In this document: positions 3,407-25,494 of the stretch, piece by piece
Position numbering within the stretch: the stretch's first letter is position 1
Layout of the letters: each line of letters starts with the position of its first letter
Assembly: GCA_002441305.1 (NCBI GenBank)
Contig: DJVT01000002.1
Coordinates: 16,335 to 80,334 of the forward strand
Source: Candidatus Omnitrophica bacterium UBA6249
GTDB taxonomy: Bacteria > Omnitrophota > Gorgyraeia > Gygaellales > Profunditerraquicolaceae
Reading direction: 5' to 3'
DNA: 64,000 nt
The notes under the pieces: model-generated
What the model was told of the DNA's origin: nothing
Database searches by the model: none
What the model saw: the letters and a program-made list of their open reading frames with translations, nothing else
Position numbers and translations under genes: made by a program

Positions 3407-3674
3407 TTTTTACCTAATACAAATTAAATAAAAAATAAATTCCCCCCTTACCCCAGAATCATTTTTAATTTTGAAATCTGTTCTTGTCATCATTAATCCG
3501 TTATTATTAAAATCTTTTTAAAATTTTTTATCAAGTACTGTTCAAAAATAGTCTGGTTCTCGTCGATACTGGCAACCCGGCTATCCTTTGAGGCTTTTTT
3601 GATTTGAGGACCCGTGGCTTTGTGTCCCTAGATTTCTCTAGGTTTACCTTTTTCATCATTTCAACTTACACTTA

Positions 3675-6216: not shown

Positions 6217-6390
6217 TTATGGAGTATACTGTTCGCCGCCGCCTAAGACATCACCTGTTTGACGGTATTTCCCCTGGAGACTGCGGCGATAATACGCCCC
6301 TGCCGCGATAAAAACTGCGACTACCAAGATAAGTATCCCTAGATATTCTATTATGGATTGCGCTTTATGACCCGGATTTTTTATAGGCAT
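6217..6390 (-). CDS. Small prepilin-like protein (57 aa) of the extended-pilin family
   Basis: Below the track cutoff. My translation: MPIKNPGHKAQSIIEYLGILILVVAVFIAAGAYYRRSLQGKYRQTGDVLGGGEQYTP. GGTGGA sits 5 nt upstream of ATG 6390. It overlaps the 3' end of the upstream ORF by 26 nt. It shows the same Q-S-x-x-E-Y, hydrophobic helix, Y-x-R-[RG]-x-Q-G and QY pattern as the genes at 9800..11497. Confidence 0.55.
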   Translation of the reverse strand: MPIKNPGHKAQSIIEYLGILILVVAVFIAAGAYYRRSLQGKYRQTGDVLGGGEQYTP

Positions 6391-7105
6391 TATAGTCCAC
6401 CGAGATACTTGTTTTTTTCAATGGGATCAAGTCGCTGCCGAACTTGGCATTCAAATTCTCGGAAACCTTTATTTTGCAGTTTTCTTTATTCTCTTTCCTG
6501 CGAAACAGCAAGACGGTATTCTTGGAAATCCCCGTTACCGGATTCCGGGCGGCAAGCTCCCATCCGTATTTCAGCATAGCAGATTCATAGAAAAAAACCA
6601 CATCTTTTACGCTATCATCGGTTTCATATACGAATGAGATTTTACCAAGGAACTTCAAAGAAATGGTCTGGATACTGCCGGGATAAACAGGCATAAAACT
6701 TACCCTATCGGGTTTTTTCTTGCTCATTGACAGAAATTCTTCTTTATCCGGGGTGTTCCCTATGGTTATACTGAATTTACTCTCTTTCTCTGGATTGCCC
6801 GAAGGATAGAATTGAATTGTGGCCAAATGCTTGTCTTTTGAGAATACCCCTTTACCTGCCACGCTCCATCCTGCCTGGGATAGTTTTTCTTCATAAAAAT
6901 CATATATCTCGCCCTCTCCCAAAAAGGTTTTATACATGCTTGTAGACATCTTTACTGGACCAAACTCCGAGCTTCTTTCATTAATTTTAGAAGTTTGGGA
7001 GGGAACCGGCATCCTGAAATTGGCGGCAAATAAAACAGGAGTAGCAACAAAAATAACCAAGAATAAACTCAATAAAAAATTCCCTAATAATCTGTAAATA
7101 CGCAT
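6365..7105 (-). CDS. Secreted/membrane-anchored hypothetical protein with internal duplication
   Basis: The track ORF starts at GTG 7120; ATG 7105 with GGGAG upstream is preferred (246 aa). Signal/anchor LLGNFLLSLFLVIFVATPVLFAANF. Two similar modules (IYDFYEEKLSQAGWSV / VVFFYESAMLKYGWEL). No family recognised. Confidence 0.6.
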   Translation of the reverse strand: MRIYRLLGNFLLSLFLVIFVATPVLFAANFRMPVPSQTSKINERSSEFGPVKMSTSMYKTFLGEGEIYDFYEEKLSQAGWSVAGKGVFSKDKHLATIQFYPSGNPEKESKFSITIGNTPDKEEFLSMSKKKPDRVSFMPVYPGSIQTISLKFLGKISFVYETDDSVKDVVFFYESAMLKYGWELAARNPVTGISKNTVLLFRRKENKENCKIKVSENLNAKFGSDLIPLKKTSISVDYNAYKKSGS

Positions 7106-7159
7106 TAAACTGGCTCCCACGTGTCTTTCGATAAATAAACTGGTTAATCTCCCGGGCTC

Positions 7160-8869
7160 TTAATCAATGCTTACTATCTGGGTTTCGTAGTTATCTTTAA
7201 AATCCTTCAACACCCCCTCGCCATGAAACTCTGCGGTGCTGGTACTTGTAGTAGCTGAATAAGGACTGCAGGTCTCCTCGCGCTCATTATATAAATTCTC
7301 ACAAAACGAGGATACACTGCATTTTGTCTGCCAAGCAGCAGGAGGACCTTCAAATACAGGATCATCGCCTATATTTATAATCATCGGGGTATCTTCATAA
7401 AAACTTGTCAGTTCATTCGAAGCTCCTTCGAAAGCACTATTGGCTTCATCATATCCTGCCTCGCCTTCTTGAAAGCCGCCGAGGGCTTCATCCGCATCGC
7501 TTACCGAACCGGTAAGCGTTTCATAACTGCCGCATATTTCTCCGGAATCAACGAATAAGCCTGCTTCAGTAAGCCATACATTTTTATATGTATCGGCATC
7601 CCTGGAATAAAGAGTCGCAATAGTTAAATCACTGCTCGAGGCATCGGAATTTTTAAGGATAGCATCAAGCGCTGCACATACTGATTCCTGTTTTGTCGTA
7701 AGAGCCTGCTTCCTGTTAGTCGCAGGGTCATAATAGTTAGGGTGGGCGTCGCAGGGGGGGTCTACAGCGTCACAGCATTCTTGAGCATAAACGGTCAATT
7801 GATAAATATCCTGCCCTTCTGTCGCGTTAATCGCTAAATTGTTATAAATACAAACCATGATGACCGTCAATGCCTTATAAGCTATCTGGTTAAAAGGATC
7901 GTCTGAAATAGAGGTTTCTTCGAATTCTATAAGATTTAATACATCACTTGGGATATTAAACGTCTTGTCATCCGGATAAGCCTTGTTTGTATATCTAAGT
8001 TTATAGTCGGTCAATTTCGGCATTTCCAGCGTTACAGTAGCCCCGCAAGTGCTCGTACCGCATTTTGAATCCCAATTCCAATCATAAGTTGAATTACTGG
8101 TAGTATCCTGGAAGGAGGCGTCATCTTTATACTTGCCGGTTCCCATCCAATAGCTAAATTTATCGCTGTTCGGGGACCTGGAAGACGTTCCGCTGTTATT
8201 AAAAGCATACTGCATCCCTACATCTTTGGCCTGTTCAATAGAATCATCCATAAGGTTCCTGGCCTGGCAATAATTTGCCACCTGCGACTGCTTAAAGCTA
8301 TCCGTAATTTGTTGAAGATAATAAGCAAGGACGTAACTGGCATAAAAAAAGTGCGCTGATGTCAACGCAAATGAAGCAGCTCCGATGACATCCTCGCTTT
8401 CGCTAAAGTTTTTTTCTGCCCCTTGTTGTTGATTTACCCAAATAGCACAATACTCTTCTGTAGTATCGATCTTTGCCAATGCCTCATAGGCCTTGTTTTT
8501 TGCTTGCTGAGCGTAAGTTTTGCCCTCATCACTATATCCGGAAAAATCCGCAATTCCTTCGCATTCATGTAAAAAATTATACAGATAATGGTAATTGGCC
8601 AAAGCGTAATCATAGTATTCATCCATATCCCTATTCTCAATGGCCAACTCATTAAAGGCCCCGGCCATAACAGAACCTGCGGCTAAAGAACAGGCGTCTG
8701 CGCCATTGGAAACGTTGGTTTTGCTTATTGCGCTTTTTCCTGCCGAAATGGCAATTTTTGCGCCTACAATCAAAATAACTATAAAAATAAGCAATAACGG
8801 AAATACCTGCCCTGCCGGCTTTCCCGCCGGACAAAAGCCTTTATTCCCGGGCAATCGGTGGATAAACAT
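7160..8869 (-). CDS. TadG-like large pilus-associated protein, Cys-rich (569 aa)
   Basis: The track ORF (609 aa) begins inside the upstream gene. ATG 8869, preceded by GGGGGAAAAGG and 10 nt after the stop of 8880..9116, is preferred. The N-terminus PAGQVFPLLLIFIVILIVGAKIAISAGKSAISKTNVSNGADACSLAAGSVMAG resembles the TadE/G-like N-terminal domain. About 16 Cys by my count; the rest is D/E/N/S/T/Y-rich. Confidence 0.6.
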   Translation of the reverse strand: MFIHRLPGNKGFCPAGKPAGQVFPLLLIFIVILIVGAKIAISAGKSAISKTNVSNGADACSLAAGSVMAGAFNELAIENRDMDEYYDYALANYHYLYNFLHECEGIADFSGYSDEGKTYAQQAKNKAYEALAKIDTTEEYCAIWVNQQQGAEKNFSESEDVIGAASFALTSAHFFYASYVLAYYLQQITDSFKQSQVANYCQARNLMDDSIEQAKDVGMQYAFNNSGTSSRSPNSDKFSYWMGTGKYKDDASFQDTTSNSTYDWNWDSKCGTSTCGATVTLEMPKLTDYKLRYTNKAYPDDKTFNIPSDVLNLIEFEETSISDDPFNQIAYKALTVIMVCIYNNLAINATEGQDIYQLTVYAQECCDAVDPPCDAHPNYYDPATNRKQALTTKQESVCAALDAILKNSDASSSDLTIATLYSRDADTYKNVWLTEAGLFVDSGEICGSYETLTGSVSDADEALGGFQEGEAGYDEANSAFEGASNELTSFYEDTPMIINIGDDPVFEGPPAAWQTKCSVSSFCENLYNEREETCSPYSATTSTSTAEFHGEGVLKDFKDNYETQIVSID

Positions 8870-8879
8870 CCTTTTCCCC

Positions 8880-9116
8880 CTACTTCTTAAGAAAATATAT
8901 CTGGTCATCGGTAATCTCCGATGCGCCATAAGGAACTGCGGGCTCTCCCGCGGAATCCCTTGAACCTGCCTGGACCCTGGTATCTTCATAGCTTCCCTGC
9001 CGGGCCCAAATCTGATCCTTTGACCAAGACCATAAATTCAACAGGCCGGCGATCAAAGCTACCGCTATTATAAAGATTAAAGTAAATTCTAAAGTGGCCT
9101 GGGCCTTTTTCATCAT
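8880..9116 (-). CDS. TadE-like pseudopilin (78 aa)
   Basis: MMKKAQATLEFTLIFIIAVALIAGLL...: short basic leader, then Q-A-T-L-E-F and a hydrophobic helix. Start overlaps the upstream stop (9116/9113). Confidence 0.6.
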   Translation of the reverse strand: MMKKAQATLEFTLIFIIAVALIAGLLNLWSWSKDQIWARQGSYEDTRVQAGSRDSAGEPAVPYGASEITDDQIYFLKK

Positions 9117-9757
9117 TGCATCGTAGTCTGGCGCGACATCGTTCCCCCGCCGGAAGTATATTTACCGCCCTCTCCCAATCCTCCTTCAAGATCTATAGAT
9201 GTCCCTTCTACATCGGAATCCCCTCCCAACGTATCCGTAACTACAAGTGATTTCCGGGTCACTATATTGCCGTTAGCCTCGTCTTTTTGAAAAGTCACAG
9301 TGCTGTAAGATGTACTTGTAAAACCGGAATGGGTGGTTTCGCTGGTATTATAAGGGGCATCACGGGCGGGAATCTCCTGAGGCTCGCCCCTGTTCAACTG
9401 AAACCACGACTTGGACTCAGTATCCGTTTTTACGGTAGCGCCGCTTTCATCGGTAGTCACGTCCTGTTTACCGTCTGACCAAAGGACATTGCTCGAGGCG
9501 CCAAATTGCTGCAACTCTCCCAGCTCCATAGGGCTGGTCACATTGGACATCCTGCGGAAATCGGTTGTCTGCCAAGATGCTGAATTGTTGAGTTTTCTGG
9601 CCTCTTTCAAAGCCGCGCGGAAGGTTTGTTGTATGTAAGACTGCTGCCGGTTGTATATCTCGCTGTGTTTTATGGCAAGAGCAAAAGCCATGAGTATTAT
9701 TGAGCCTAAAATGGCCAATTCTAATACTGCCTGTCCTTTAGATTTCCAGAACATCAT
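9113..9757 (-). CDS. TadE-like pseudopilin (214 aa)
   Basis: MMFWKSKGQAVLELAILGSIILMAFALAI...: a K-G/Q-A-V-L-E-L class-III-like signal plus helix, then an S/T/G/D-rich extracellular part. Confidence 0.6.
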   Translation of the reverse strand: MMFWKSKGQAVLELAILGSIILMAFALAIKHSEIYNRQQSYIQQTFRAALKEARKLNNSASWQTTDFRRMSNVTSPMELGELQQFGASSNVLWSDGKQDVTTDESGATVKTDTESKSWFQLNRGEPQEIPARDAPYNTSETTHSGFTSTSYSTVTFQKDEANGNIVTRKSLVVTDTLGGDSDVEGTSIDLEGGLGEGGKYTSGGGTMSRQTTMQ

Positions 9758-9799
9758 CGGCCCCCTGCAATACTGGATCTAAAACCACCAACCAAGCCT

Positions 9800-10093
9800 C
9801 TATTGGCTATATTGATACGTAGATTCCTCTTTCCCCGTAAGTTTTCTGCCTCCCCCAAGCAGCTCTTGGTTAGTCATGGTTGATTTCAAAGAGGTCGAAC
9901 TTTCGGTATCCGCGGCATCTTCGTCGGGAGCCTGCTGGTCGCTTATGATGTAATCGGTCAAGCTCTTAACTTTCCCCTGCATACCCCTTCTTAGGTAAGC
10001 TTCCATCCCGATAACTACAAGCCCTATGATCCCGATAAGCAAAGCGATCTCGATTACGCTCTGTCCCCTGTCTAAAGAAAACACTGTTTTCAC
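9800..10093 (-). CDS. Extended prepilin-like protein (97 aa), paralog family member
   Basis: MKTVFSLDRGQSVIEIALLIGIIGLVVIGMEAYLRRGMQGKVKSLTDY..., acidic/S/T-rich tail ending YQYSQ. Start overlaps the upstream stop. Confidence 0.6.
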   Translation of the reverse strand: MKTVFSLDRGQSVIEIALLIGIIGLVVIGMEAYLRRGMQGKVKSLTDYIISDQQAPDEDAADTESSTSLKSTMTNQELLGGGRKLTGKEESTYQYSQ

Positions 10094-10821
10094 AGGCCAC
10101 CCAGACTTTCATTTATATTCTTGCTGGTGGATGTTTTGCCGCTTTCGCTGCTATAAGAAGTGGAGGATGAAGAATCTTCGGTTATCTCCCTTGCGTCCCA
10201 GTCCTCCTTCAAAGCATCATATTCATCGCTAAGCTGGCCCAATGTTTCGTATTTGCTATTTAATTCGGTTATATAATTTGCTACTATGCCGCCCTCCGGG
10301 GGACCGGCCCATGTAAGAGCTGTTGCCGGGTCAATCTGGCCGCCTTCCCCGGAAATCGCGAAGGTCTCTTCGAATGCCTTTAAAGCCTCCTCGTCTCCTT
10401 CTATAGCCAGGGCTCCTTCGAATCTAGATTGCATTTCTTCTATTTCTTCATCGGTATATCCACCCTGATTTTTCTCTTGCAGCTCGTCCTCCGTAAACCC
10501 ACCTCTTTCAAAACTGTCTATATCCTCCTGCTGTGTTTGAAGTTCCTCTAATTTATTATCCAAAGCTTCGTTTGGTTCATTCATATTGCCGTAATTTACC
10601 GTGGTGTTCGTCCCGGAAGATTGGGTGGTCTCTATCTTCTTAACCTCGGTATTATGGATGGTGGTATTCCCCGGGTCATACTGTCCTGCCCCCAATTTCT
10701 CAGCATTGCTGCGCACCCCCCCTTGTAACCCGCGATTAACATAAACCAGCATGGCAACTAATGCGGCGGCGAATACCCCGATTAACAAAATATAATCCAA
10801 GGCCGCCTGTCCTTTTTTCAT
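10090..10821 (-). CDS. Extended prepilin-like protein (243 aa) with long acidic tail, paralog family member
   Basis: MKKGQAALDYILLIGVFAAALVAMLVYVNRGLQGGVRSNAEKLGAGQYDPG..., then ~190 aa very rich in E/D/S/T (EDIDSFERGGFTEDELQEKNQGGYTDEEIEEMQ...). Confidence 0.6.
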   Translation of the reverse strand: MKKGQAALDYILLIGVFAAALVAMLVYVNRGLQGGVRSNAEKLGAGQYDPGNTTIHNTEVKKIETTQSSGTNTTVNYGNMNEPNEALDNKLEELQTQQEDIDSFERGGFTEDELQEKNQGGYTDEEIEEMQSRFEGALAIEGDEEALKAFEETFAISGEGGQIDPATALTWAGPPEGGIVANYITELNSKYETLGQLSDEYDALKEDWDAREITEDSSSSTSYSSESGKTSTSKNINESLGGL

Positions 10822-11135
10822 TAGTCCTCCGAGCCAAGATCGCTTATAGTCTCGCTTCCGGTTTTTCTTTGTTCATTTTGAACGATCTCTGTAGTAACCC
10901 TCCCTCCCGATGTCATGTTTTCAACCTGCTCCATGTCAACTGTCGTGGTGTAAGTGGAAGTAGTGTGCCCGGCTGAATACTGCTCTCCTATCTGGTCCGT
11001 CGAACTTCTTAACCTGCCTTGCACGCCCCTTTTCATATACGCCCCCATGGCAATCAGGGCCGCAACGACAAACCCTATCAGGATAACTACTTCAAGAGTG
11101 GTCTGACCTTTTGTTCTGATAAGCGACATATACAC
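10821..11135 (-). CDS. Extended prepilin-like protein (104 aa), paralog family member
   Basis: MYMSLIRTKGQTTLEVVILIGFVVAALIAMGAYMKRGVQGRLRSSTDQIGEQYSAGHTT..., T/S/E-rich tail. Confidence 0.6.
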   Translation of the reverse strand: MYMSLIRTKGQTTLEVVILIGFVVAALIAMGAYMKRGVQGRLRSSTDQIGEQYSAGHTTSTYTTTVDMEQVENMTSGGRVTTEIVQNEQRKTGSETISDLGSED

Positions 11136-11161
11136 CTCCCCGCAAAAGTTATTAAAGCGAT

Positions 11162-11497
11162 TTAATCGTCTACCCCCAAAACGGTACTGGTCCCTGTTCT
11201 TGTGCTGACATCATCTCCCACGATCGATCTGGTTATTCCCCCGCCTTCGGTGGTCGATTCTCTTTCCTGGCTCTTGCGGGTAGAAACCATATCCGAAGTG
11301 GTCTGATAATCAGGTTCATATTGCCCGGTCTGTCCGGTAATATTATCGCTCGCGTCTGTGTAATCCACGGCGTCTTTTATCTTACCCTGAAGCCCGCGCT
11401 TTACATAAACCTGCATAGCTACCGCCGCGGCAATAACTAAACCGATAACAATCGCGTATTCCGCGGTACTTTGCCCTTTGCTTAATCGTCTTAACAT
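11162..11497 (-). CDS. Extended prepilin-like protein (111 aa), paralog family member
   Basis: MLRRLSKGQSTAEYAIVIGLVIAAAVAMQVYVKRGLQGKIKDAVDYTDASDNITGQTGQYEPDY... Strong RBS AAGGAGG upstream of ATG 11497. Confidence 0.65.
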   Translation of the reverse strand: MLRRLSKGQSTAEYAIVIGLVIAAAVAMQVYVKRGLQGKIKDAVDYTDASDNITGQTGQYEPDYQTTSDMVSTRKSQERESTTEGGGITRSIVGDDVSTRTGTSTVLGVDD

Positions 11498-11528
11498 TCC
11501 TGCACCTCCTTGCTTATAAAGACATATT

Positions 11529-11544
11529 CCCGTTTATAAACGGG
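11529..11544 (-). terminator. Weak hairpin after the fourth flp gene (possible partial terminator/attenuator)
   Basis: CCCGTT-TATA-AACGGG, a 6-bp stem immediately after the stop at 11549. The downstream T-tract is poor (AATATGTCTTTAT), so at best it is leaky. Confidence 0.3.
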
Positions 11545-11548
11545 GTCA

Positions 11549-11716
11549 TTAAAAAGAAACCTCCCCCACTTTATCCTGCATCTTATCGGCCAGCTCGCTA
11601 TAAGAAGAGTTTAATTTAGGTTTCAACATACTTCCTACCGCAATTATTGCTCCGACGACCGCAGCTAAAATAATAACGTATTCCAGTGTCCCCTGCCCTT
11701 TTCTGAACTTTTTCAT
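11549..11716 (-). CDS. flp: Flp-family type IVb pilin (55 aa)
   Basis: Below the track cutoff. My translation: MKKFRKGQGTLEYVIILAAVVGAIIAVGSMLKPKLNSSYSELADKMQDKVGEVSF. It has the G/xxxxEY Flp processing motif plus a hydrophobic helix. GGAGGGAGAG precedes ATG 11716. Confidence 0.7.
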   Translation of the reverse strand: MKKFRKGQGTLEYVIILAAVVGAIIAVGSMLKPKLNSSYSELADKMQDKVGEVSF

Positions 11717-11737
11717 CTCTCCCTCCTTATGAAAAAA

Positions 11738-11959
11738 TTATTCCGATCGGTAATAATTAAGCTCCGTCTGCCTCTGTTTAAGACAGGCGTTGGTCGAACG
11801 CATCAGATAAATCGTCATCGCGATCAACGCCGCACTAACAATAATAATAAGCATCGCATATTCTATAAACCCTTGCCCGGATGCTCGTCTATAAAATGCC
11901 ATTTTACCTGGACTCTTTATCCCCCTGTCTTCATCCATCAGCCGTACATAAGCCATCAT
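11738..11959 (-). CDS. flp: Flp-family pilin (73 aa, or 54 aa from internal ATG 11902)
   Basis: ...MAFYRRASGQGFIEYAMLIIIVSAALIAMTIYLMRSTNACLKQRQTELNYYRSE. ATG 11959 overlaps the upstream TGA (ATGATG coupling). The alternative start is 11902. Confidence 0.65.
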   Translation of the reverse strand: MMAYVRLMDEDRGIKSPGKMAFYRRASGQGFIEYAMLIIIVSAALIAMTIYLMRSTNACLKQRQTELNYYRSE

Positions 11960-12114
11960 TGCCCAAGACGTGCATTCATCGCCCTTATCACATAAGTGCT
12001 CATCGCCACTAAGGCCGTGCTTATAACAATAATCAGCATGGTATATTCCAGAAAACTCTGGCCTTGATTTCGTACCATTGCCATCGGCTTTAGAATTGAT
12101 TTTCTTACGGGCAT
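11956..12114 (-). CDS. flp: Flp-family pilin (52 aa)
   Basis: MPVRKSILKPMAMVRNQGQSFLEYTMLIIVISTALVAMSTYVIRAMNARLGQ. ATG 12114 has GAGAGG 6 nt upstream. The track start 12147 would overlap the preceding flp gene. Confidence 0.65.
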   Translation of the reverse strand: MPVRKSILKPMAMVRNQGQSFLEYTMLIIVISTALVAMSTYVIRAMNARLGQ

Positions 12115-12124
12115 ATGAAACCTC

Positions 12125-12280
12125 TCATTGATTGTACACGGTGTCATATATTACAGTCAATTGCGGATTTGCCACTGAGGCAGCCGCGACTATAACACCG
12201 ATAACCACAGCCAAAATTATTACATATTCCAAAGTACTTTGGCCGCACTTACAATATAGAGTACCTCTATTATTAAACAT
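12125..12280 (-). CDS. flp: Flp-family pilin (51 aa)
   Basis: Below the track cutoff. My translation: MFNNRGTLYCKCGQSTLEYVIILAVVIGVIVAAASVANPQLTVIYDTVYNQ. It has the G/QSTLEY motif. No Shine-Dalgarno sequence is present; see the promoter at 12289..12317. Confidence 0.6.
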   Translation of the reverse strand: MFNNRGTLYCKCGQSTLEYVIILAVVIGVIVAAASVANPQLTVIYDTVYNQ

Positions 12281-12288
12281 TCTAACTA

Positions 12289-12317
12289 AATATACCATTT
12301 AAGGATATAACAATCAA
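12289..12317 (-). promoter_or_regulatory. Candidate promoter for the flp/pilin gene string
   Basis: Minus strand TTGATT (12317..12312), 17 nt, TATATT (12294..12289). The -10 ends 8 nt before ATG 12280, so the predicted transcript would be leaderless or nearly so. Confidence 0.35.
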
Positions 12318-12330
12318 GGTTAATCCAGGG

Positions 12331-14235
12331 CTATTTGAAAGCGTTTTCGAACCAGAATATCTTATTCTCGGACGTTTTAACCTTACGCTCATTTAATCTG
12401 TTATTAAAATACCCCAGGTCCTTGAGAAATTGGTAGTCATTGCTCACCAACAACTTAGCGATAAACCTCTCTTTAACAGCACCAAGCTCTGCCAGATTAC
12501 TGTAAAAGAATTTTTCCATATAGGAAAAATCCTTGGCGGAATATTCCGAAGGCAAAAAATGCCAGCGTAAATACTCATCCAGCATCTTAAGGTACAAAGA
12601 GAAAACCTTGGTTAAATCGGCAGGGGCTCCTGTTTTATTCAAATCAAAATTTTCTTTGGGGAAAATCTTGCGCTCGGCCCCGGTATATTTAAAAAGTTCT
12701 ATCTTGCTGTTAAAATCCTGAAACGCTTCTTCAAAATCCGGCCAATGGCTTAAATAAATACCGGCAAGCTTATTTAAATCCTCCGCAAGGGAATTCTCGC
12801 TTGAAAGAATTACTAGGCGGATTTTCTCTCTCAGATCGGTCTTAACCGCGCACCCTTTCAAAGAAAGTTTTCTATTCGGCATACAAAACAAATCGATTTC
12901 AATATCGCCCAAATATAAATCTTGTCCTGTTTCCTCGATATGCCTCAACGAGAAATCGCCGATTTTCTTGACTTTGCGGGTAGAACTGAATTGCCAAGGC
13001 CAAATCCCGAAAACAACGCCAAACTGCGTTTCTTTAACCAAAGAAATCTTTTCTAATTCCTCTAGCTGATCGCCAAACAACACTAAACCTTCCGGATGAT
13101 TATCCGTTCCGGACAGCTTAACGATAAGATCAAAGAACTCAGGTGGAAAAATATCCGAACTGGAAGGAGACAGCAATACCAATGGTTCCCCTTGCATAAA
13201 ATGCTTATCCAGCCTTTTCTTTATTTCATGTATCGTATTGGAAAAATCACAGGGGAAGCGGGTAGCCGGCCAGATTGAATGCAACTGGCCGTCCAAATGA
13301 CTGATACTCCCGTCGGCAAAACTTATTTTCACTCCTTTTGCTTCGGTAAAAAGTTCAGAAACAATCCCGACGCTCTCAGGAACAATATCAGCTATCTGTT
13401 TAATCTGGTCAAAATAATTATTTAATTCTTCACGCGAATACCCGGCACCGACCAAGGCCCCTAAGGCGGGATAATCCTGATCCCTGAACAAAGAGCTGAA
13501 TATCAAAGCCTCCGTAAGTTTCTCTGTGCTTTCTGGCTTGCTCCCAAGCCCCCAGCTTATAACAGAATTAATCTCCTTACTCCCCCCGATCAAACAATCG
13601 ATGGCCTTCAGCATAATCAACCCGGAAGATTTTTTGCTCTTAAGAGATGCTTCGGAATTTAAAGATACACCCTCTGGATGAACAGTTTCTACTTTCTTGT
13701 CCTGCTTAAGTTTTTGCTGTTCCTCTTCCGATATTCTGATCCATCTTTCCTTTTCGGCATTTAATTCGGTTTGGCGGGCCTCCTCCTCTTGTTTCTTCCT
13801 CTCCTCCTCAAGCCTCAAGGCCTCTTCCTGCTTCTTGCTTTCCTCGGCTTCCTGGGCCAGCCTCTTCTCTTCAAGCAGCCTGGCCTCTTCAGCAGCCTTT
13901 GCCTTGGCCATCTCCTCGGCTTCCTGGGCTTCTTTCAGGCGGCGGGCCTCCTCCTCTTGTTTAGTATCAGAAAGCGGTTTTGAGCCGGAAATATCATCTA
14001 TAACCGGTAAAGCAGGCATATTAAATTTCTTCTGCTTTGGCTTTCTTCTCCTGCCAATAGGCATACTCAATTTATTATCTTTAAAAACGTTATTTATACT
14101 GGATTTTGAAACTTTTACATGAAGGTTTTCTAAAAGCAGTGTGGACAAATCGCGGCAGCTTAATGCAGGATTTTCTCGCTTGTTTTCTATGATAAAATTA
14201 ATTATTTCCGGTTTAAGCTTATGAATTACTCCCAT
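12331..14235 (-). CDS. HTH-domain protein with E/K/A-rich coiled coil and large uncharacterised C-terminal domain (634 aa)
   Basis: N-terminus KLKPEIINFIIENKRENPALSCRDLSTLLLENLHVKVSKSSINNVFK (HTH-like), then a basic stretch GRRRKPKQKK. Residues ~90-185 are EEARRLKEAQEAEEMAKAKAAEEARLLEEKRLAQEAEESKKQEEALRLEEERKKQEEEARQ. The remaining ~430 aa belong to no family I recognise. GGAGAG RBS. Confidence 0.7.
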   Translation of the reverse strand: MGVIHKLKPEIINFIIENKRENPALSCRDLSTLLLENLHVKVSKSSINNVFKDNKLSMPIGRRRKPKQKKFNMPALPVIDDISGSKPLSDTKQEEEARRLKEAQEAEEMAKAKAAEEARLLEEKRLAQEAEESKKQEEALRLEEERKKQEEEARQTELNAEKERWIRISEEEQQKLKQDKKVETVHPEGVSLNSEASLKSKKSSGLIMLKAIDCLIGGSKEINSVISWGLGSKPESTEKLTEALIFSSLFRDQDYPALGALVGAGYSREELNNYFDQIKQIADIVPESVGIVSELFTEAKGVKISFADGSISHLDGQLHSIWPATRFPCDFSNTIHEIKKRLDKHFMQGEPLVLLSPSSSDIFPPEFFDLIVKLSGTDNHPEGLVLFGDQLEELEKISLVKETQFGVVFGIWPWQFSSTRKVKKIGDFSLRHIEETGQDLYLGDIEIDLFCMPNRKLSLKGCAVKTDLREKIRLVILSSENSLAEDLNKLAGIYLSHWPDFEEAFQDFNSKIELFKYTGAERKIFPKENFDLNKTGAPADLTKVFSLYLKMLDEYLRWHFLPSEYSAKDFSYMEKFFYSNLAELGAVKERFIAKLLVSNDYQFLKDLGYFNNRLNERKVKTSENKIFWFENAFK

Positions 14236-14338: not shown

Positions 14339-14683
14339 TTAAGATGAAAAAGAAAGGTTGTCGCCTTTTTGAGTGCATGTCAAGCTAATGGTTCCGGAAG
14401 GCAATTCAATCACTTTGGAAGAATTCCAGTATACGGGACTGAGTTTATTCGGGGATAGTTTATGGATAATATCTATTACTCGAAAAGCTTTATCTGCAAA
14501 AATTACATCTATCGGGAAACGCATAAAGAAAGTATGCACAGAAATACAGGGTTCCAGAATAAGCGCTTGCCCGGAAGAAAAAGTATTTTTCCCCAACAAC
14601 CCTTTAACTCTTTTTAAGAAAGTATCGGCTAAAATTACATCATCGGATAAAACGGTATTTTTTGTCCGGTTTATCAAACGCAT
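14339..14683 (-). CDS. DUF192 domain protein
   Basis: 114 aa. ADTFLKRVKGLLGK...GQALILEPCISVHTFFMRFPIDVIFADKAFRVIDI...VIELPSG matches the DUF192/COG1430 pattern. Confidence 0.7.
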   Translation of the reverse strand: MRLINRTKNTVLSDDVILADTFLKRVKGLLGKNTFSSGQALILEPCISVHTFFMRFPIDVIFADKAFRVIDIIHKLSPNKLSPVYWNSSKVIELPSGTISLTCTQKGDNLSFSS

Positions 14684-14693
14684 GGATATTCCC

Positions 14694-16853
14694 TTACGAT
14701 TTGACGGGTTTGAATATATCGTCGGAGATGGCTATTCCGCGGACGCGAATCTCATTAACAAAAGTAGGCTTGTACCCTGTAGGAGTAAAATACCCCAACA
14801 CTTTTCCCTGCGCATCAACACCTGTTTGTTTAAAAATAAAAATGTCGTTCAGGTTTATATGCATTTCGTCCTGCATCCCGGCCACTTCGGATACGCAAAG
14901 CACTTTCCTTGATCCGTCGGAGAGCCGGGCAGTATGCACAATTATATCCACGGCGGAAGAGACCATTTCGCGAATAGCCCTTGCCGGTAGCTCTATGCCG
15001 GACATCAGAATCATCGAATCCAGACGCGATAAAACATCTGCCGTAGAATTAGCGTGAATCGTGGTCATGGAACCGTCATGCCCGGTATTCATCGCCTGAA
15101 GCATATCCAAAGATTCGGTCCCGCGGCATTCTCCTACGATAATCCTGTCGGGACGCATACGCAAAGTGTTCCTAAAAAGGTCACGAATGGTCAACCCGCC
15201 TTTACCTTCTATGTTCGGCGGACGTGACTCCAGCCTCACCCAATGCCTTTGGTTCAACTTGAGCTCCGCGGCATCCTCAAGCGTAACAATCCTTTCCCCT
15301 TCCGGGATATACTCGGAAAGGGCATTTAAAACCGTAGTCTTGCCTGAACCCGTACCTCCCGACACAATCATATTCTTGCGGCACAACACGCAAGCCCTGA
15401 TAAAATCAGCCATGCCCTGGGTAAGCGCACCGAAATTAATCAAATCGCTTGTCTTGTATCTTTCCTTGCGGAATTTCCTGATAGTCAAGGTGGGCCCGGT
15501 AAGAGACAAGGGGGGGATAATTGCGTTTACGCGCGAACCGTCATTCAAACGGGCGTCCACCATGGGAACAGACTCATCGATACGCCGGCCTATGGGGGCA
15601 ATAATGCGCTCGATTATAGTCCTTACCTGTTCGTTGGAAATAAATTTTTTGCTGGTAAGCTCCAGTTTTCCGAAACGCTCCACATATACTTCATCCTTAT
15701 TATTGACCATTATATCCGTAACATCAGGATCGGCCAAAAGGTCCTCTATCGCCCCCAGCCCCAATGCCTCGTCGAGGATCTCTTTGATTAACTTCCTCCG
15801 CACCTCCTGAGAGGGGATAAAACTGCCTGCTTCTTCAAGCAGGAGGTTACTTACCACTACCTCCGCTTTTTTCTTAAGTTCTTCTCCCTTTTTATGGTCG
15901 CTAAAAACTTTCAGGTCTATCTTCTTTATATTCATACTCTCGAGAAGACGGCTGTGTATTCTTCGCTTGAGTATCAATATTTCATCCTTGTCTTCATTGA
16001 CATCCGGGTCAAGTACGGTCTCTCCTAACCCCTGCCCCTCCCAAAACTGAGCCGCCTTGCTGTCGGGTTCCTTCTTCAGCTTCAATTGATCTATATTCCT
16101 GCGTTCCACGAATACGGATTTATTCGAAATAAGAGTATTGGTTAAACCGGAAAAAGCCGAGGCGATCCTGGAGCGCGGAGAATCTATTACTACCGGAATC
16201 CCCTGATTAACCGCCTGGTTTACCAGCCTGCCTTCGGAAGGAATTTTTTCGATAATCTCGACCGGTAAATGCACGCGGATCTCCTGCCAGCTGATACTGG
16301 ACAGGGATTCCGCCCTATTCAATAGGAGTTGGATCATATTCAGGGGAAAATGCAAAAACTGCAAAGTATCCAAAGCCCATTTTGTCTGGTATATGGATAA
16401 GGCATCCGGGGTTACAATAAGCAGGATAAGGTTTGCCTGGTTGAGCACAGCGAGAAACAAATCACTGAAACTTTTCCCGGCGTCGACGATTATATAGTCG
16501 TAATCTTTATCCAACAAAGAAAATACCTCTGGTATCTTCTCCGGGTACAAATACCCCGATTGCTGAGGCTTAAGCACGCCCGCGATAAAATCGACTCCGT
16601 TAAATTTTGATTTGACGATAAAATTCTGTTTCTTGGTTAACTGAGGTTGTTTTTTCAAAAAGCTCATCAGATCCGCCATGCATACTTGCGGATCCACGCC
16701 AAGTATATGCGACATATCCCCTACAACCTGCGTATCCAGGTCAATGGCGCAAACGCGCTTTCCTTCTTTGGCCAAGGAAGCAGCCAGGTTAGCGGCGATT
16801 AAAGTCTTGCCTACTCCGCCTTTAGTGCTGAATATGACTATTACTTTTGCCAT
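14694..16853 (-). CDS. cpaF: Fusion of ParA/MinD-like ATPase (TadZ/CpaE-type) with CpaF/TadA secretion ATPase (719 aa)
   Basis: Residues 1-~255: MAKVIVIFSTKGGVGKTLIAANLAASLAKEGKRVCAIDLD (deviant Walker A). Residues ~330-719: T2SSE ATPase with Walker A SGGTGSGKTT, plus RPDRIIVGECRG and MNTGHDGSMTTIHAN. Confidence 0.85.
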   Translation of the reverse strand: MAKVIVIFSTKGGVGKTLIAANLAASLAKEGKRVCAIDLDTQVVGDMSHILGVDPQVCMADLMSFLKKQPQLTKKQNFIVKSKFNGVDFIAGVLKPQQSGYLYPEKIPEVFSLLDKDYDYIIVDAGKSFSDLFLAVLNQANLILLIVTPDALSIYQTKWALDTLQFLHFPLNMIQLLLNRAESLSSISWQEIRVHLPVEIIEKIPSEGRLVNQAVNQGIPVVIDSPRSRIASAFSGLTNTLISNKSVFVERRNIDQLKLKKEPDSKAAQFWEGQGLGETVLDPDVNEDKDEILILKRRIHSRLLESMNIKKIDLKVFSDHKKGEELKKKAEVVVSNLLLEEAGSFIPSQEVRRKLIKEILDEALGLGAIEDLLADPDVTDIMVNNKDEVYVERFGKLELTSKKFISNEQVRTIIERIIAPIGRRIDESVPMVDARLNDGSRVNAIIPPLSLTGPTLTIRKFRKERYKTSDLINFGALTQGMADFIRACVLCRKNMIVSGGTGSGKTTVLNALSEYIPEGERIVTLEDAAELKLNQRHWVRLESRPPNIEGKGGLTIRDLFRNTLRMRPDRIIVGECRGTESLDMLQAMNTGHDGSMTTIHANSTADVLSRLDSMILMSGIELPARAIREMVSSAVDIIVHTARLSDGSRKVLCVSEVAGMQDEMHINLNDIFIFKQTGVDAQGKVLGYFTPTGYKPTFVNEIRVRGIAISDDIFKPVKS

Positions 16854-16855
16854 TT

Positions 16856-18451
16856 TTATTCAAGTTGATAAATTATCGGGATATCCACCCACATCTCTTT
16901 CTTATTGACCTCCGGGGGGAACGGAGGATACGGCGAAATCTTCTGCGCCGCGCTTACCGCGTTATCGTCAAGCAAACGGTAATTGGAGGGTTCTTTAACT
17001 TTCAAATCCAACAGGTCTCCCTGGGCGGAAAGTTTAAGACTTAATTTTACCTTGCCTTGAAAACCGGCTTCTTTTGCTGCTTCCGGATAAGCAAGATTTT
17101 CCAAGACTTTACGCTGAATAATTTTGGCATACCTGGTAACCGGATCCTTGGCATCTTCTTCAGTAAAAACAGGAGTGCCGGATATAACAGGCTTTGTCTC
17201 CTGGAGCGCTTTATTCTGATCCATCACGTGAGGAGTCAAGGTAATAAAAAGTTCCGTATCGTCGGCCTTGGCAAGATCCGAATTCCACCCTTGAGATGAT
17301 GTCTTTTGCCTGAAAAACAAACCTAAAACAGGAATATCGGAAAGCCAGGGAACCCTCTTTAATTCTTCGGTAGACTTTTTCTTAATCAGCCCGCCGATCG
17401 CCATAGTCTGCCCGTCGTCGAGAAAAAGTTCGGTCGTCGCAGTACGCTTGGTCATTTTGTACGCAAGGGCATACGTAGTACTTACCACATCCCCCAGCTC
17501 GCTTACGGTAACGTCAAGATTAAGATGTACACGCCCGGAATCATTGATCAGGGGCCTGACGTTCAGAATAATCCCGTACTCTTTGTACTCAACAGAACCG
17601 TTGCTTGTCGCGCCTACAGAAGTAGAACCGCTTGTCCCGGGAGTAACCGTACCGCTCAAAACAGGGACCTCCCCTCCAACCACCAGCTTGGCCTCTTTTC
17701 CGCTCTGGCAGGAAACCCTGGGGCGGGAAAGAATACGCGCCTTGCCGTCTTTTATCAAGGCATCCAGTTTGAGGGTAAAAGCATCCCTGGTAACATTGAC
17801 CACATGAAACAGCTTACCCCAAGTGGTCCCGGCTTCGGAAATTCCAGGAGAGCCTACTTCGGTCAAATTCAGAGAGCTCGGCCAGGTAAACCCAAGGGTA
17901 TCCTGAGAGCCCCTGTTAAGCTCGATTACCTGGACATCTATCTCTATAACAGCTTCTTCCTCTTTAAGTTTTATCAAGTCTATAGTCTTATCCTTAAGAG
18001 CACCTAAAACGGTAGCGATACGCTCTCTGTCCGCGGCATTCTTGACAAAACCCAAGAGCACCACTTTTCCTCCGTCTTCGTCCGCGCTTGAATAGACATC
18101 CGGCAGATTTAATTTCTGTAAAGCTTTATCTATGCGCTCTTTTACTTCTAGCATATTTTCAGTGAATACTTTAAGGCGGTATGACTGCTCGCCAAAATCA
18201 TCCCAGATAACAAGCGTAGTTGTCCCTGCGGATTTGGGATTAACTGTCAAATCGTTTTTTGTAATATTGACCACGTCGGCAACCGAAGGATTTCCAATCG
18301 CTATTCTTTTTGGTGAATTTATGGCAATCACTTGCGGTTCGCCTAAATAGAGTTTCATCTCCTCATCAACGTCATCCGCTGCGCGCCCGCCCAGAGGAAA
18401 AAGGGATACAAAAGCACAAAATAATAACAGATTAAAAAATAACTTTCTCAT
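16856..18451 (-). CDS. cpaC: CpaC/RcpA-type secretin with C-terminal TonB-C-like domain (531 aa)
   Basis: Signal peptide, then pilus-N domain (LYLGEPQVIAINSPKRIAIGNPSVADVV...TTLVIWD), then secretin core (ILSRPRVSCQSGKEAKLVVGGEVP...VPWLSDIPVLGLFFR...ELFITLTPHV). The last ~85 aa, YPEAAKEAGFQGKVKLSLKLSAQGDLLDLKVKEPSNYRLLDDNAVSAAQKISPYPPFP, fit the TonB C-terminal domain pattern. Confidence 0.8.
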   Translation of the reverse strand: MRKLFFNLLLFCAFVSLFPLGGRAADDVDEEMKLYLGEPQVIAINSPKRIAIGNPSVADVVNITKNDLTVNPKSAGTTTLVIWDDFGEQSYRLKVFTENMLEVKERIDKALQKLNLPDVYSSADEDGGKVVLLGFVKNAADRERIATVLGALKDKTIDLIKLKEEEAVIEIDVQVIELNRGSQDTLGFTWPSSLNLTEVGSPGISEAGTTWGKLFHVVNVTRDAFTLKLDALIKDGKARILSRPRVSCQSGKEAKLVVGGEVPVLSGTVTPGTSGSTSVGATSNGSVEYKEYGIILNVRPLINDSGRVHLNLDVTVSELGDVVSTTYALAYKMTKRTATTELFLDDGQTMAIGGLIKKKSTEELKRVPWLSDIPVLGLFFRQKTSSQGWNSDLAKADDTELFITLTPHVMDQNKALQETKPVISGTPVFTEEDAKDPVTRYAKIIQRKVLENLAYPEAAKEAGFQGKVKLSLKLSAQGDLLDLKVKEPSNYRLLDDNAVSAAQKISPYPPFPPEVNKKEMWVDIPIIYQLE

Positions 18452-18512: not shown

Positions 18513-19433
18513 CTATTTAGGCAAAGATACCTGCTCCTTTTTCAAACCGCGCAGTACTTCCACATACTCCGTCGGCTCCGCGGGTACGGTCTCTATCGGT
18601 TTTTCTACCGCTTTTTCTGCATCCTGCTTCTGCGGCATAATATATTGGAATAAAGCCTCCCAGCTTGCGGGGGTAAGCGGTTCAATTTTGGCATCGGCGG
18701 GGGAACGCATAGTCAAACGCACCTTTCCCTGCTCCTGGACAAAAGCTATAAGGCTTGCCTCCTGTGGAGTAAGTGCTAAGGTAATCAAATTGCTTGTTCC
18801 CTTGGGAGCCTCTCCTTGCTTATCATACCTCCCGGAGGAAAGCTCAGGACCGCCTATATTTTGTCCTACGGCCAGAATTAAAACGTTTTGAAACAAAGGA
18901 ATAACCGCTACCTGACTTAACATTTTCCCATCCGGTCCTGGGACTGGAATTTGTATCGTGGCAAGTACATCAACATAATCCCCGGGCCTAACCATATGGG
19001 CCAAAGAAGACAGGTTATCTACAACAATAGATATAGCCCTTTTGCCCGCAGGAGTAACTCCGGATAAATTCCCTCCCCCGGACTGCCTTATACGCGTAAG
19101 CTTCGAGAGGCTTATCTGCTCTCCCTTGGAAATAGGCGCGACAGTAACCATCCCGGAAATCCTGTCCAAAGACGTAACCGCCTGCGGCTGAACGAATTTA
19201 TTCGGGACGATCGAGGTATCAAACATCTCCGGTTCAATAGCTGCCCCCTGGGGAATATCCTGTTTAGCCACCAGCACAGCGGTTTGGCTGGATCTCATAT
19301 TGGCAATCGCCGCCTTGGCTTTAACCTGCATAGCTTGCTGCTGCTGGTCAAGGTACATCTTGGTCATGGCAATAGCCATAACGCCTAACACTATGCCGCT
19401 GAGCAATATAAGCTTCTGCTTTTCGATTGCCAT
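18513..19433 (-). CDS. cpaB: Flp pilus assembly protein CpaB/RcpC
   Basis: 306 aa. N-terminal anchor LILLSGIVLGVMAIAMTKMYL, then SAF-like and RcpC-like regions. ATG shares one base with the upstream stop (TAATG). Confidence 0.8.
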   Translation of the reverse strand: MAIEKQKLILLSGIVLGVMAIAMTKMYLDQQQQAMQVKAKAAIANMRSSQTAVLVAKQDIPQGAAIEPEMFDTSIVPNKFVQPQAVTSLDRISGMVTVAPISKGEQISLSKLTRIRQSGGGNLSGVTPAGKRAISIVVDNLSSLAHMVRPGDYVDVLATIQIPVPGPDGKMLSQVAVIPLFQNVLILAVGQNIGGPELSSGRYDKQGEAPKGTSNLITLALTPQEASLIAFVQEQGKVRLTMRSPADAKIEPLTPASWEALFQYIMPQKQDAEKAVEKPIETVPAEPTEYVEVLRGLKKEQVSLPK

Positions 19434-20347
19434 TATTTTATCTCCCCTTCGAATACTTCGATCTTTGCGTCACGGGAAAGCTTTCCAATCAGTTCTTCGA
19501 TCGCCTGCTGTTGCTTAAGAAAAACAAGTCCCCTGTTAATATCGTCCCACATTTCCGACAAGGGCCTTTGCTTGCCTCCGCGTTTTGCCTCAAGCCTAAT
19601 GATCGCATACCCTTCTGGAACCTTGAATATATTGCTTACCTTGCCTATATCCAAAGAGTCAGAGAAGGCAACAGCATCGAACTGGGCAGATTTTTGCCCT
19701 TTTTTGATAAACCCGATATTCCCTCCGTCTTTAGCGCTGCCAGACCTGGAGCTGCTTCTTGCCAATGCGGCAAAATCCGCCCCCTGAAGAAGCTGTATTA
19801 ATACATCTCTGGCGTCCTGTTCACTGCCAACGATAATCTCGGAAACCTGCCTCTCTTCCGGCTCTTTGAATTGATCTTTATAAGTATTGTAGTAATCCTC
19901 CACTTCCTTAGAAGTAACATTGATATCTTTGGCTATTTCTTTGATATCCTGCAGAACCATGAGATCGCGTTTATTTTTTTCCACCGCCTGCCTAACTTCT
20001 TCGTCACGGTCAAGCCCATTATCAAGGGCATGTTGATAAAGCAAGGCCCTGCGCACCATTTCATTCTTTAAATAATTGACCTTTTGTTCTTTGGTGGTTA
20101 TTTTTAACTCTGAGCGGTCCTCCGGGACATTTGCGTTATAAACAGTAATCTCGGCATTCAAATCATCCAATCCTATAGAAATATTGTTTACCTTGGCGAC
20201 TACCGGCCCCTTAGCTTCTACAACCGCTGGCTGAACTTCGATTTTAACCTCGGGCTTGCTTTTTACCGCCGGTTTAAATTTGTCACACCCCAAAACCCCG
20301 CCGCATAATAAGACAAGTGCAGAAAAAAGAATAATATTATTTCTCAT
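19433..20347 (-). CDS. Parvulin-type peptidyl-prolyl isomerase lipoprotein (PrsA/SurA-like)
   Basis: 304 aa. Lipobox LLCGGVLGC. Rotamase region SEIIVGSEQDARDVLIQLLQGADFAALARSSS...GGNIGFIKKGQ...FKVPEGYAIIRLE. Confidence 0.75.
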   Translation of the reverse strand: MRNNIILFSALVLLCGGVLGCDKFKPAVKSKPEVKIEVQPAVVEAKGPVVAKVNNISIGLDDLNAEITVYNANVPEDRSELKITTKEQKVNYLKNEMVRRALLYQHALDNGLDRDEEVRQAVEKNKRDLMVLQDIKEIAKDINVTSKEVEDYYNTYKDQFKEPEERQVSEIIVGSEQDARDVLIQLLQGADFAALARSSSRSGSAKDGGNIGFIKKGQKSAQFDAVAFSDSLDIGKVSNIFKVPEGYAIIRLEAKRGGKQRPLSEMWDDINRGLVFLKQQQAIEELIGKLSRDAKIEVFEGEIK

Positions 20348-20549: not shown

Positions 20550-20627
20550 TGGTAGCCCCAACCGGATTTGAACCGGTGTTTACAGGCTGAGAACCTGACG
20601 TCCTGGACCGGGCTAGACGATGGGGCC
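20550..20627 (-). tRNA. tRNA-Glu (anticodon CUC), CCA encoded
   Basis: Minus strand GGCCCCATCGTCTAGCCCGGTCCAGGACGTCAGGTTCTCAGCCTGTAAACACCGGTTCAAATCCGGTTGGGGCTACCA. It folds as a cloverleaf with acceptor GGCCCCA/TGGGGCT, anticodon loop TTCTCAG and T-loop TTCAAAT, and closely parallels bacterial tRNA-Glu. Confidence 0.85.
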
Positions 20628-20690
20628 AAATATTAGATGTATTTTACTATAATTGCCTTTTTAGTCAACAACTTAATAAATACAATTTTA

Positions 20691-20719
20691 TTGACCCTCC
20701 ATAATTTACATTATATACT
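20691..20719 (+). promoter_or_regulatory. Candidate promoter of the FIST-kinase-GGDEF operon
   Basis: TTGACC (20691..20696), 17 nt, TATACT (20714..20719). The -10 ends 7 nt before ATG 20727 and there is no SD sequence, which is leaderless geometry. Confidence 0.4.
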
Positions 20720-20726
20720 GGTTGGC

Positions 20727-21911: not shown

Positions 21912-21912
21912 A

Positions 21913-23388: not shown

Positions 23389-23396
23389 AAACTACT

Positions 23397-25484: not shown

Positions 25485-25494
25485 CCTTAATAAT

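Follow-up and report, generated by a model that had tools for sequence, protein, structure and literature searches.

A TadZ-like domain fused to the TadA/CpaF motor ATPase in a predicted Tad pilus locus of Omnitrophota

In a 64,000-nucleotide (nt) stretch of the genome of Candidatus Omnitrophica bacterium UBA6249 (contig DJVT01000002.1; hereafter the window), a single open reading frame (ORF) of 719 amino acids (aa), tadZA (14694..16853, minus strand), joins a TadZ-like domain, a linker and a TadA/CpaF motor in one polypeptide, as seen from its translation and from Pfam. The gene lies in a tad/cpa locus with genes for CpaB/RcpC, a secretin, TadB, TadC and Flp-like pilins. We consider it quite likely that its product, TadZA, is the motor ATPase of the Omnitrophota Tad (type IVc, Flp) pilus, in which a TadZ without a receiver domain is fused to the N-terminus of TadA/CpaF, as in the TadZA protein of Bdellovibrio. 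A first-pass annotation of this DNA had placed one 719-aa ORF at 14694-16853 and described it as a ParA-type TadZ/CpaE ATPase joined to a complete TadA/CpaF motor; its coordinates are right, the strand is minus, and domain scans, nearest relatives and the tad locus bear out the description. The architecture is already known from Bdellovibrio, and what is new here is its taxonomic range and a linker motif.

The tadZA gene runs from an ATG at 16853 to a TAA stop at 14694-14696. Upstream of the ATG, the nearest in-frame stop is only 2 codons away, and just 2 nt separate the ATG from the end of the secretin gene, so that no N-terminal extension of TadZA is possible and the N-terminus is fixed. The translated ORF contains all the motifs that had been claimed for it: STKGGVGKT, AIDLD, GGTGSGKTT, RIIVGECR and TGHDGSMTTIHANS, the last at aa 590-603 in the motor half. 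We searched 5.8 billion clustered proteins and compared the best 120 clusters. Proteins of 706-723 aa, with query coverage of 96-100% and 72-90% identity to the window TadZA, made up 118 of the 120; they were drawn from NCBI, JGI, ENA and Logan assemblies, and those with a label were nearly all from Candidatus Omnitrophota/Omnitrophica. An identical protein, with the same neighbour genes, is called on a separate Logan assembly of run SRR5323233, and the uninterrupted architecture is also present in complete genomes of cultured Bdellovibrio. Judged from these sequences, the tadZA fusion is a conserved feature of the Omnitrophota lineage. We also considered production of a separate TadA from an internal start and rejected it: the sole Met in aa 250-310, M306, lies inside helix 1 of the first motor domain, and the 84-sequence consensus has no residue at 50% or more in that column, which means that it is not conserved.

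The C-terminal half of TadZA is, by its catalytic residues, domain order and gene neighbourhood, a member of the TadA/CpaF family. Pfam T2SSE matches aa 365-644 (E 6e-63; 213 bits against a cutoff of 24.9), and the Caulobacter CpaF structures 9e24 and 8rkd align with aa 285-707 (E 3e-117). CpaF of Caulobacter has a three-helix motif at aa 80-149, termed N-terminal domain 1 (NTD1), followed by NTD2 and a C-terminal domain (CTD), and roles have been described for its catalytic residues (PMC11300603). This domain order is kept in TadZA, and the AlphaFold secondary structure agrees with it. The three-helix NTD1 occupies aa 290-364 (15762..15986; this and all further features of TadZA are on the minus strand), as placed by alignment with Caulobacter CpaF aa 75-149 and by model helices at aa 291-306, 320-345 and 349-363. 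NTD2 (aa 365-465; 15459..15761), placed by alignment to 8rkd and 9e24, carries the arginine fingers R435 and R441, and the C-terminal ATPase domain (aa 466-719; 14697..15458) is defined by alignment to Caulobacter CpaF. A Walker A motif, GGTGSGKTT (aa 499-507; 15333-15359), and a Walker B motif, RIIVGECR (aa 570-577; 15123-15146), are read directly from the sequence; the Asp box (15261-15284) and the His box (15045-15086) follow from alignment to CpaF.

At the residue level, K505, E530, E575 and H600 of TadZA align with K287, E312, E357 and H382 of CpaF, and R435, R441, R565 and R649 align with R217, R223, R347 and R431. All eight are invariant in an alignment of 84 Omnitrophota and Bdellovibrio fusions, which we used throughout for residue conservation. 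TadZA thus shares NTD1, NTD2, the CTD and all named catalytic and arginine-finger residues with Caulobacter CpaF (PDB 8rkd, 8rjf, 9e24). The N-termini differ: Caulobacter CpaF begins with a disordered 79-aa NTD0, whereas TadZA has there a folded 250-aa ATPase domain and a 38-aa linker. Among NCBIfam models, the C-terminal half is matched by TadA-type, VirB11 and TrbB families and the N-terminal half by MinD-type families. The best model, TIGR03819 (TadA family, conjugal-transfer-associated), scores 336.7 against a cutoff of 373, and no CpaF-specific model is among the matches listed (25 of 53 families).

The N-terminal part of TadZA, aa 1-250 (16104..16853), is a TadZ-like P-loop domain of ParA/MinD type, as judged from Pfam, AlphaFold, Foldseek and nearest relatives. 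The first-pass annotation had proposed a domain scan and had stated that a receiver-like N-domain is lacking. Both are settled by Pfam, which matches CbiA/AAA_31/ParA at aa 2-241 (E 1e-15 to 1e-17) in addition to the C-terminal T2SSE: the ParA domain begins at residue 2, hard against the upstream in-frame stop, and no receiver domain stands in front of it. The domain has a deviant Walker A motif, STKGGVGKT (aa 9-17; 16803..16829), with the signature lysine K11 and the P-loop lysine K16, a Walker A'/switch I motif, AIDLD (aa 36-40; 16734-16748), and a Walker B motif, YIIVDAG (aa 120-126; 16476..16496), all read from the sequence. K11, G12, G13, G15, D38, D124 and G126 are invariant in the 84 fusions; for K16 and D40, conservation is 90% or higher. 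Modelled alone by AlphaFold, the domain reaches a predicted local distance difference test score (pLDDT) of 90.9 and a predicted template modelling score (pTM) of 0.90. The TadZ module seems able to bind ATP and to form an ATP-sandwich dimer of the MinD/ParA type, the dimer being what the family would lead one to expect.

Several observations place this domain with TadZ. We ranked its relatives by score, rather than by a tree, in a search against 1.84 billion representative proteins. All matches of at least 146 bits have the ParA domain at the extreme N-terminus, followed by a CpaF part where the sequence is long enough. The next tier, at 110-139 bits, consists mostly of proteins of ~380-430 aa with a ParA domain at ~aa 140-385. 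We also scanned 185,579 species genomes and analysed the best 80 loci. In ~50 of these, an ORF of 390-440 aa lies directly upstream of cpaF, and its C-terminal part matches query aa 2-250; phyla with this split arrangement include Firmicutes, Actinomycetota, Chloroflexota, Acidobacteriota, Proteobacteria, Nitrospirota and Planctomycetota. When six of the split upstream ORFs were scanned, five had a Response_reg match in their N-terminal part, in two of them above the Pfam cutoff. The unfused relatives of ~400 aa thus have, on this evidence, the receiver-plus-ParA architecture of TadZ/CpaE.

Gene order supports the same assignment. The order CpaB, secretin, TadZ(A) is kept in the 15 loci that we compared. 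In the split loci L007, L016 and L028, tadZ and tadA fill the slot, between the secretin and the rest of the tad locus, that the fusion fills in the window; their order of CpaB, secretin, TadZ, TadA, TadB, TadC corresponds to that of the window, and two of these three loci also have a DUF192 gene. No second ParA-like or T2SSE gene is present in the window, where neither half of TadZA, used as a phmmer query against all six-frame ORFs of 80 aa or more, matched anything but TadZA itself. Like canonical TadZ/CpaE (Aggregatibacter actinomycetemcomitans TadZ, Caulobacter crescentus CpaE and E. rectale TadZ), which are its closest unfused relatives by sequence, the N-domain has an ATPase domain of the ParA/MinD superfamily, and the canonical gene lies between rcpA/cpaC and tadA/cpaF; unlike them, it has no receiver domain. 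The Walker A motif differs as well: TadZ has been described with an atypical one and with low ATPase activity (PMC6668835), whereas that of the window TadZA is canonical. Most unfused relatives of TadZ/CpaE architecture also carry a KGGxGK[ST] Walker A. On the evidence of relatives and locus, the N-domain is TadZ-derived, without the receiver domain that is one defining feature of TadZ.

Between the two halves lies a linker of ~38 residues (aa 251-289; 15987..16103), predicted to be disordered (AlphaFold pLDDT <50 for aa 252-289). The first-pass annotation had counted ~70 residues; aa 290-364 are the ordinary NTD1 of CpaF. In the AlphaFold model of whole TadZA (mean pLDDT 72.5, pTM 0.42), aa 1-250 are confidently placed (pLDDT 82-94). 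The linker takes the position of NTD0 of Caulobacter CpaF, as CpaF aa 75 aligns with TadZA aa 285. The residues of NTD0, aa 1-79, are disordered in Caulobacter, and phage infection, which served as the proxy for pilus extension in that work, does not require them (PMC11300603). The Omnitrophota linker is, from its sequence, not a low-complexity spacer. It contains the motif AQFWEGQGLGETVLDP (aa 268-283; 16005..16052), with the consensus GQFWxxQxLxExVxEPD in 45 Omnitrophota sequences, in all of which F270, W271, Q274 and L276 are invariant. This conservation therefore points to selection on the linker as coding sequence. When linkers were compared, the GQFWxxQxL motif was absent from those of Bdellovibrio, which are Ala/Pro/Ser-rich after a conserved LQRLKTLxRPKP; going by the sequences at hand, the motif is specific to Omnitrophota.

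TadZ and TadA had been taken by the first-pass annotation to be separate proteins in all described loci. That statement is outdated, as a TadZA fusion of Bdellovibrio bacteriovorus, encoded in tad locus 1 and with a TadZ region that has no atypical receiver domain (ARD), was described in a July 2026 preprint (bioRxiv 10.64898/2026.07.08.737194). There, tadZA is reported to be essential: attempts at deletion failed, and silencing of tadZA-tadB blocks prey invasion. TadZ and linker are necessary and sufficient for binding the polar hub RomR, and TadZA shuttles rapidly between the poles in a RomR-dependent manner rather than being stable at one (bioRxiv 10.64898/2026.07.08.737194). The B. bacteriovorus proteins of ~738 aa have the same architecture as the window TadZA, and among them P0307 shares 42% identity with it and is colinear over 702 aa. 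Shared between the two are an ARD-less ParA/MinD-like N-terminus, a flexible linker and a TadA motor, a gene position directly after the secretin gene, the Walker A motif KGGVGK[ST] and the catalytic residues of both halves. They differ in phylum, in their N-domains, whose identity is only about 28-30%, and in the linker, where Omnitrophota have GQFWxxQxL in place of the Ala/Pro/Ser-rich sequence that starts LQRLKTLxRPKP. The loci also differ: in the window, the DUF192 gene comes next, and tadB and tadC follow ~8-9 kb further on, after the pilin array, whereas the Bdellovibrio fusion gene is followed at once by tadB, with tadC located elsewhere. Interaction with RomR is known for Bdellovibrio TadZA only. 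As the Bdellovibrio linker is part of the RomR-binding determinant, the Omnitrophota motif is a candidate docking site for a different partner. The first-pass annotation had suggested that the fusion implies different polar targeting or regulation, and this would match the binding of RomR by TadZ and linker in Bdellovibrio.

These comparisons are consistent with a model in which the C-terminal part of TadZA would form a hexameric motor that drives assembly of Flp pilins, and probably their retraction, through TadB and TadC. Each protomer would carry a tethered TadZ module that binds ATP, and neighbouring modules could dimerise as MinD and ParA do. TadZ module and linker would dock the motor onto a cellular landmark or envelope complex and so bring positioning and motor together in a 1:1 ratio. 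In an organism presumed to be ultra-small and host-dependent, the probable role of the pilus is attachment to the cell of a host or prey. Three points weigh against this account. Both fold comparison and NCBIfam give the N-domain its best scores with proteins of MinD type; the Bdellovibrio mechanism may not transfer, because the N-domains are ~25-30% identical and the linkers are unrelated in sequence; and dimerisation within the hexamer is something that we purely infer.

Two alternatives concern what the polypeptide is. Adjacent tadZ and tadA genes might have been merged by a sequencing or assembly error at their junction; canonical tadZ and tadA are adjacent and, in the top-ranked genomes, very commonly share a reading frame with one stop codon in between, so that one base error could join them. 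Checked on assemblies, as the first-pass annotation had advised, the fusion held up. The same uninterrupted architecture recurs in 118 of the 120 best clusters, which draw on assemblies made independently (NCBI, JGI, ENA and Logan), the identical protein is called in the second assembly (SRR5323233), complete genomes of cultured Bdellovibrio have the fusion, the conserved linker motif points to selection as coding sequence, and full-length tagged TadZA-msfGFP is reported to accumulate in Bdellovibrio (bioRxiv 10.64898/2026.07.08.737194). A merge or frameshift is thereby ruled out as far as this is possible without reads, and we give it next to no weight. Alternatively, the N-domain could be a MinD, FlhG or other ParA-family ATPase that was put onto CpaF independently and has a role unrelated to Tad positioning. 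Its Walker A is the canonical KGGxGK[ST], and like MinD and FlhG (FleN) it has a deviant Walker A with the signature lysine. Foldseek ranks MinD, Chlorobium ParA 3ea0, FleN, FlhG and ParA highest (template modelling score about 0.8), and the best sequence matches in the PDB, at ~60 bits, are archaeal MinD (1g3q, 1ion) and 3ea0. The solved TadZ structure 3FKQ is neither among the PDB sequence matches at E<=1e-5 nor among the top 50 fold matches. Because MinD, ParA and FleN lead these matches, the TadZ assignment rests on nearest relatives and synteny rather than on structure. MinD models are also the best NCBIfam matches, at 95-100 bits against 32 bits for an actinobacterial CpaE-like model. 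These scores, however, stay far under the family cutoffs (99.9-101 against 212.9 bits for TIGR01968, and 95-99 against 201.75 for TIGR01969), and the genomic context is a tad locus, in whose tadZ slot the domain sits; on these two grounds we rejected an identity as MinD. The best unfused relatives, at 110-139 bits, are of TadZ/CpaE architecture, well above the MinD structures; they adjoin cpaF immediately upstream, and most share the KGGxGK[ST] motif. MinD has a free C-terminal amphipathic membrane-targeting helix, whereas the N-domain continues into linker and CpaF, and no minC, minE or flagellar gene is found among the window ORFs scanned with Pfam. The MinD-like structural matches are accounted for by the reported kinship of TadZ with archaeal MinD-like pilus components (PMC6668835). 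An unrelated ParA-family addition is, in our view, very improbable.

A third alternative accepts the identity of both halves and concerns what the TadZ module does. It might mainly regulate the motor rather than localise it, with partner binding, or the ATP-dependent dimerisation of adjacent modules, gating hexamer assembly or the switch between extension and retraction. All residues for ATP binding and dimerisation are conserved in the module, Bdellovibrio TadZA moves rapidly between poles, and c-di-GMP (cyclic di-GMP) signalling elements flank the tad locus. CpaF is reported to be a single bifunctional motor and a C2-symmetric hexamer (PMC11300603), which makes paired N-terminal modules geometrically conceivable. 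Canonical TadZ/CpaE, however, is known as a localisation factor, a polar hub for the Tad machine in A. actinomycetemcomitans, Caulobacter and Bdellovibrio (PMC6668835; bioRxiv 10.64898/2026.07.08.737194), and NTD0, which TadZ module and linker replace, is dispensable in Caulobacter (PMC11300603). We regard a mainly regulatory role as unlikely, although it would be compatible with a TadZ module that also positions the motor and does not exclude it.

A phylogenetic survey, which the first-pass annotation had recommended, found fusions in Bdellovibrionota/Oligoflexia, Elusimicrobia and WOR-3 as well. Among the loci analysed, those of Omnitrophota are L001 and L002, with which L003, binned as Planctomycetales, groups; Bdellovibrionota/Oligoflexia contribute L005, L006, L009, L010 (a complete Bdellovibrio genome), L012 and L013, Elusimicrobia L035 and L077, WOR-3 L045, and unclassified metagenome-assembled genomes (MAGs) L004 and L054. 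The N-terminal Walker A is canonical in the window, in L002 and in Bdellovibrio-type fusions; it reads KGGVGRT in L001, KEGVGK[ST] in Elusimicrobia, KGGIGTT in WOR-3 and GKPGEGKS in L004. Searched by term, the Bdellovibrio preprint (bioRxiv 10.64898/2026.07.08.737194), PMC10066038, a 2026 preprint on complete genomes of Omnitrophota and a survey of the TFF superfamily (PMC6668835) contain no mention of the fusion outside Bdellovibrio.

By neighbour-joining (NJ), fused and split loci separate with bootstrap values of 90% for the motor domain and 98% for the concatenated domains of 61 two-domain loci, and of only 6% for the N-domain. With all 80 motors included, the fused ones at no point make up a clade of their own; joined by motors that have no adjacent TadZ (Myxococcota and others), they stand apart from TadZ-adjacent motors at 73%. 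We conclude from these trees that the fused motors probably belong to a distinct CpaF sub-lineage. In the CpaF motors without an adjacent TadZ (L030, L038, L059, L061, L066, L071 and others, from Myxococcota, Acidithiobacillus and others), a stop-free stretch of ~120-280 aa with no resemblance to ParA extends the N-terminus. In split loci, tadZ and tadA are often in frame with a single stop codon between them (about 44 of 50, L007-L079), an excess that we do not count as real because ranking by tblastn E-value favours loci where the alignment runs through the stop. The TadZ tail of ~20-27 aa and the CpaF N-terminal stretch of ~14-50 aa in split loci add up to roughly the linker length. The fusion most likely arose by loss of the tadZ stop codon. 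A broader idea, which we put forward tentatively and hold to be somewhat doubtful, is that the fusion may mark a distinct Tad motor lineage common, by descent or transfer, to predatory, parasitic or ultra-small bacteria (Omnitrophota, Bdellovibrionota/Oligoflexia, Elusimicrobiota, WOR-3), in which lineage-specific linker motifs, GQFWxxQxL in Omnitrophota, took the place of a lost TadZ receiver and dock the motor to different host-contact or polarity factors.

Of the conserved parts of Tad pili, TadZ is the one least understood. Covalent fusion to TadA fixes the stoichiometry at 1:1 and shows that the TadZ receiver domain is dispensable in some lineages; because one construct gives the complex, the relationship between TadZ and motor becomes easier to study structurally. 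No isolate exists from the phylum Omnitrophota, most members of which have been proposed to live as predators or parasites. Their Tad loci have been described as a symbiosis or predation trait (PMC10066038). That the fusion is kept there, and also in Elusimicrobia and WOR-3, widens a feature so far reported for Bdellovibrio only, and fusion and linker motif together provide a sequence marker for finding the partner that positions the attachment pilus. The names that current annotation gives to such proteins, 'MinD' or 'CpaF/T2SS ATPase', are both inadequate.

The genes around tadZA complete the picture of the locus, and those of the tad operon are all on the minus strand. A peptidyl-prolyl isomerase (PPIase; 19433-20347) precedes CpaB/RcpC (18513..19433), which is identified by Pfam RcpC and SAF and by TIGR03177 pilus_cpaB (157.8 bits against a cutoff of 71). 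An RcpA/CpaC-type secretin (16856..18451; Pfam T2SS-T3SS_pil_N, Secretin and TonB_C) is encoded immediately upstream of tadZA. Its C-terminal TonB_C domain, at aa 452-530, scores 61.7 bits with Pfam and 59.6 bits with NCBIfam tonB_Cterm (cutoff 27.1); an identical secretin gene in the Logan assembly has the same domain set, and the Bdellovibrio secretin was matched weakly. Directly downstream of tadZA is a gene for a Pfam DUF192 (COG1430) protein (14339..14683). DUF192 occurs in 5 of 15 other tad loci compared (L001, L002, L007, L016 and L054, from Omnitrophota, Firmicutes, Anaerolineales and an unclassified MAG), and its usual place is after tadC. We know of no role for DUF192 in Tad pili.

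Further downstream, a 634-aa protein (12331-14235) has faint helix-turn-helix-like matches at its N-terminus, an E/K/A-rich, coiled-coil-like stretch at ~aa 90-180 and then ~400 aa without a recognised fold; no counterpart was detected in L001 and L002, the Omnitrophota loci. It is followed by an unusually large array of ~11 small ORFs resembling Flp-type prepilins (6217..12298), found from their translations and a weak Pfam Class_IIIsignal match. Their leaders read G/A-Q-x-x-L/I-E-Y/F, for example KGQSTLEY, followed by a hydrophobic helix; they range from 55 to 243 aa, and several have long Ser/Thr/Glu-rich C-terminal extensions. Within the array span lie a 609-aa TadG-like protein (7160-8989), with a weak match to Pfam Tad (TadE/G-like), and a 251-aa protein (6365-7120). 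The 634-, 609-, 251- and 214-aa proteins of the operon have no significant Pfam or NCBIfam family, and no prepilin peptidase was found among the window ORFs scanned. The platform proteins TadB (5353-6198) and TadC (4499-5356) are both identified by Pfam T2SSF.

Elements related to c-di-GMP bracket the tad locus. At one end, a c-di-GMP-I-GGC riboswitch (Rfam RF03167; 3567-3657, minus strand; 69 bits against a gathering score of 59) lies ~160 nt upstream of an ORF of at least 1136 aa (2-3409, minus strand). This ORF is directly downstream of tadC, continues past the left edge of the window and shows, at aa 176-254, a weak match of Peptidase_C39 type. The large protein beside the pilus locus may, to judge from this arrangement, be under c-di-GMP control. 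At the other end, three plus-strand genes divergent from the tad operon form a putative sensory module (20637-24332): they encode a FIST protein (20637-21911), a histidine kinase of GAF-HisKA-HATPase layout (21913-23388) and a protein that combines a receiver with GGDEF (23397-24332). A tRNA gene (Rfam RF00005, 54 bits; 20553-20627, minus strand) separates the first gene of the tad operon from the FIST operon. Beyond the module, at 24558-26727 on the plus strand, genes for a MoxR-type AAA_3 ATPase and for a DUF58 protein precede those for an 897-aa protein without a Pfam family and for a 715-aa protein that matches Big_2 weakly; from its gene content, this cluster may be an operon of the MoxR/DUF58/vWA-like (BatA-type) kind.

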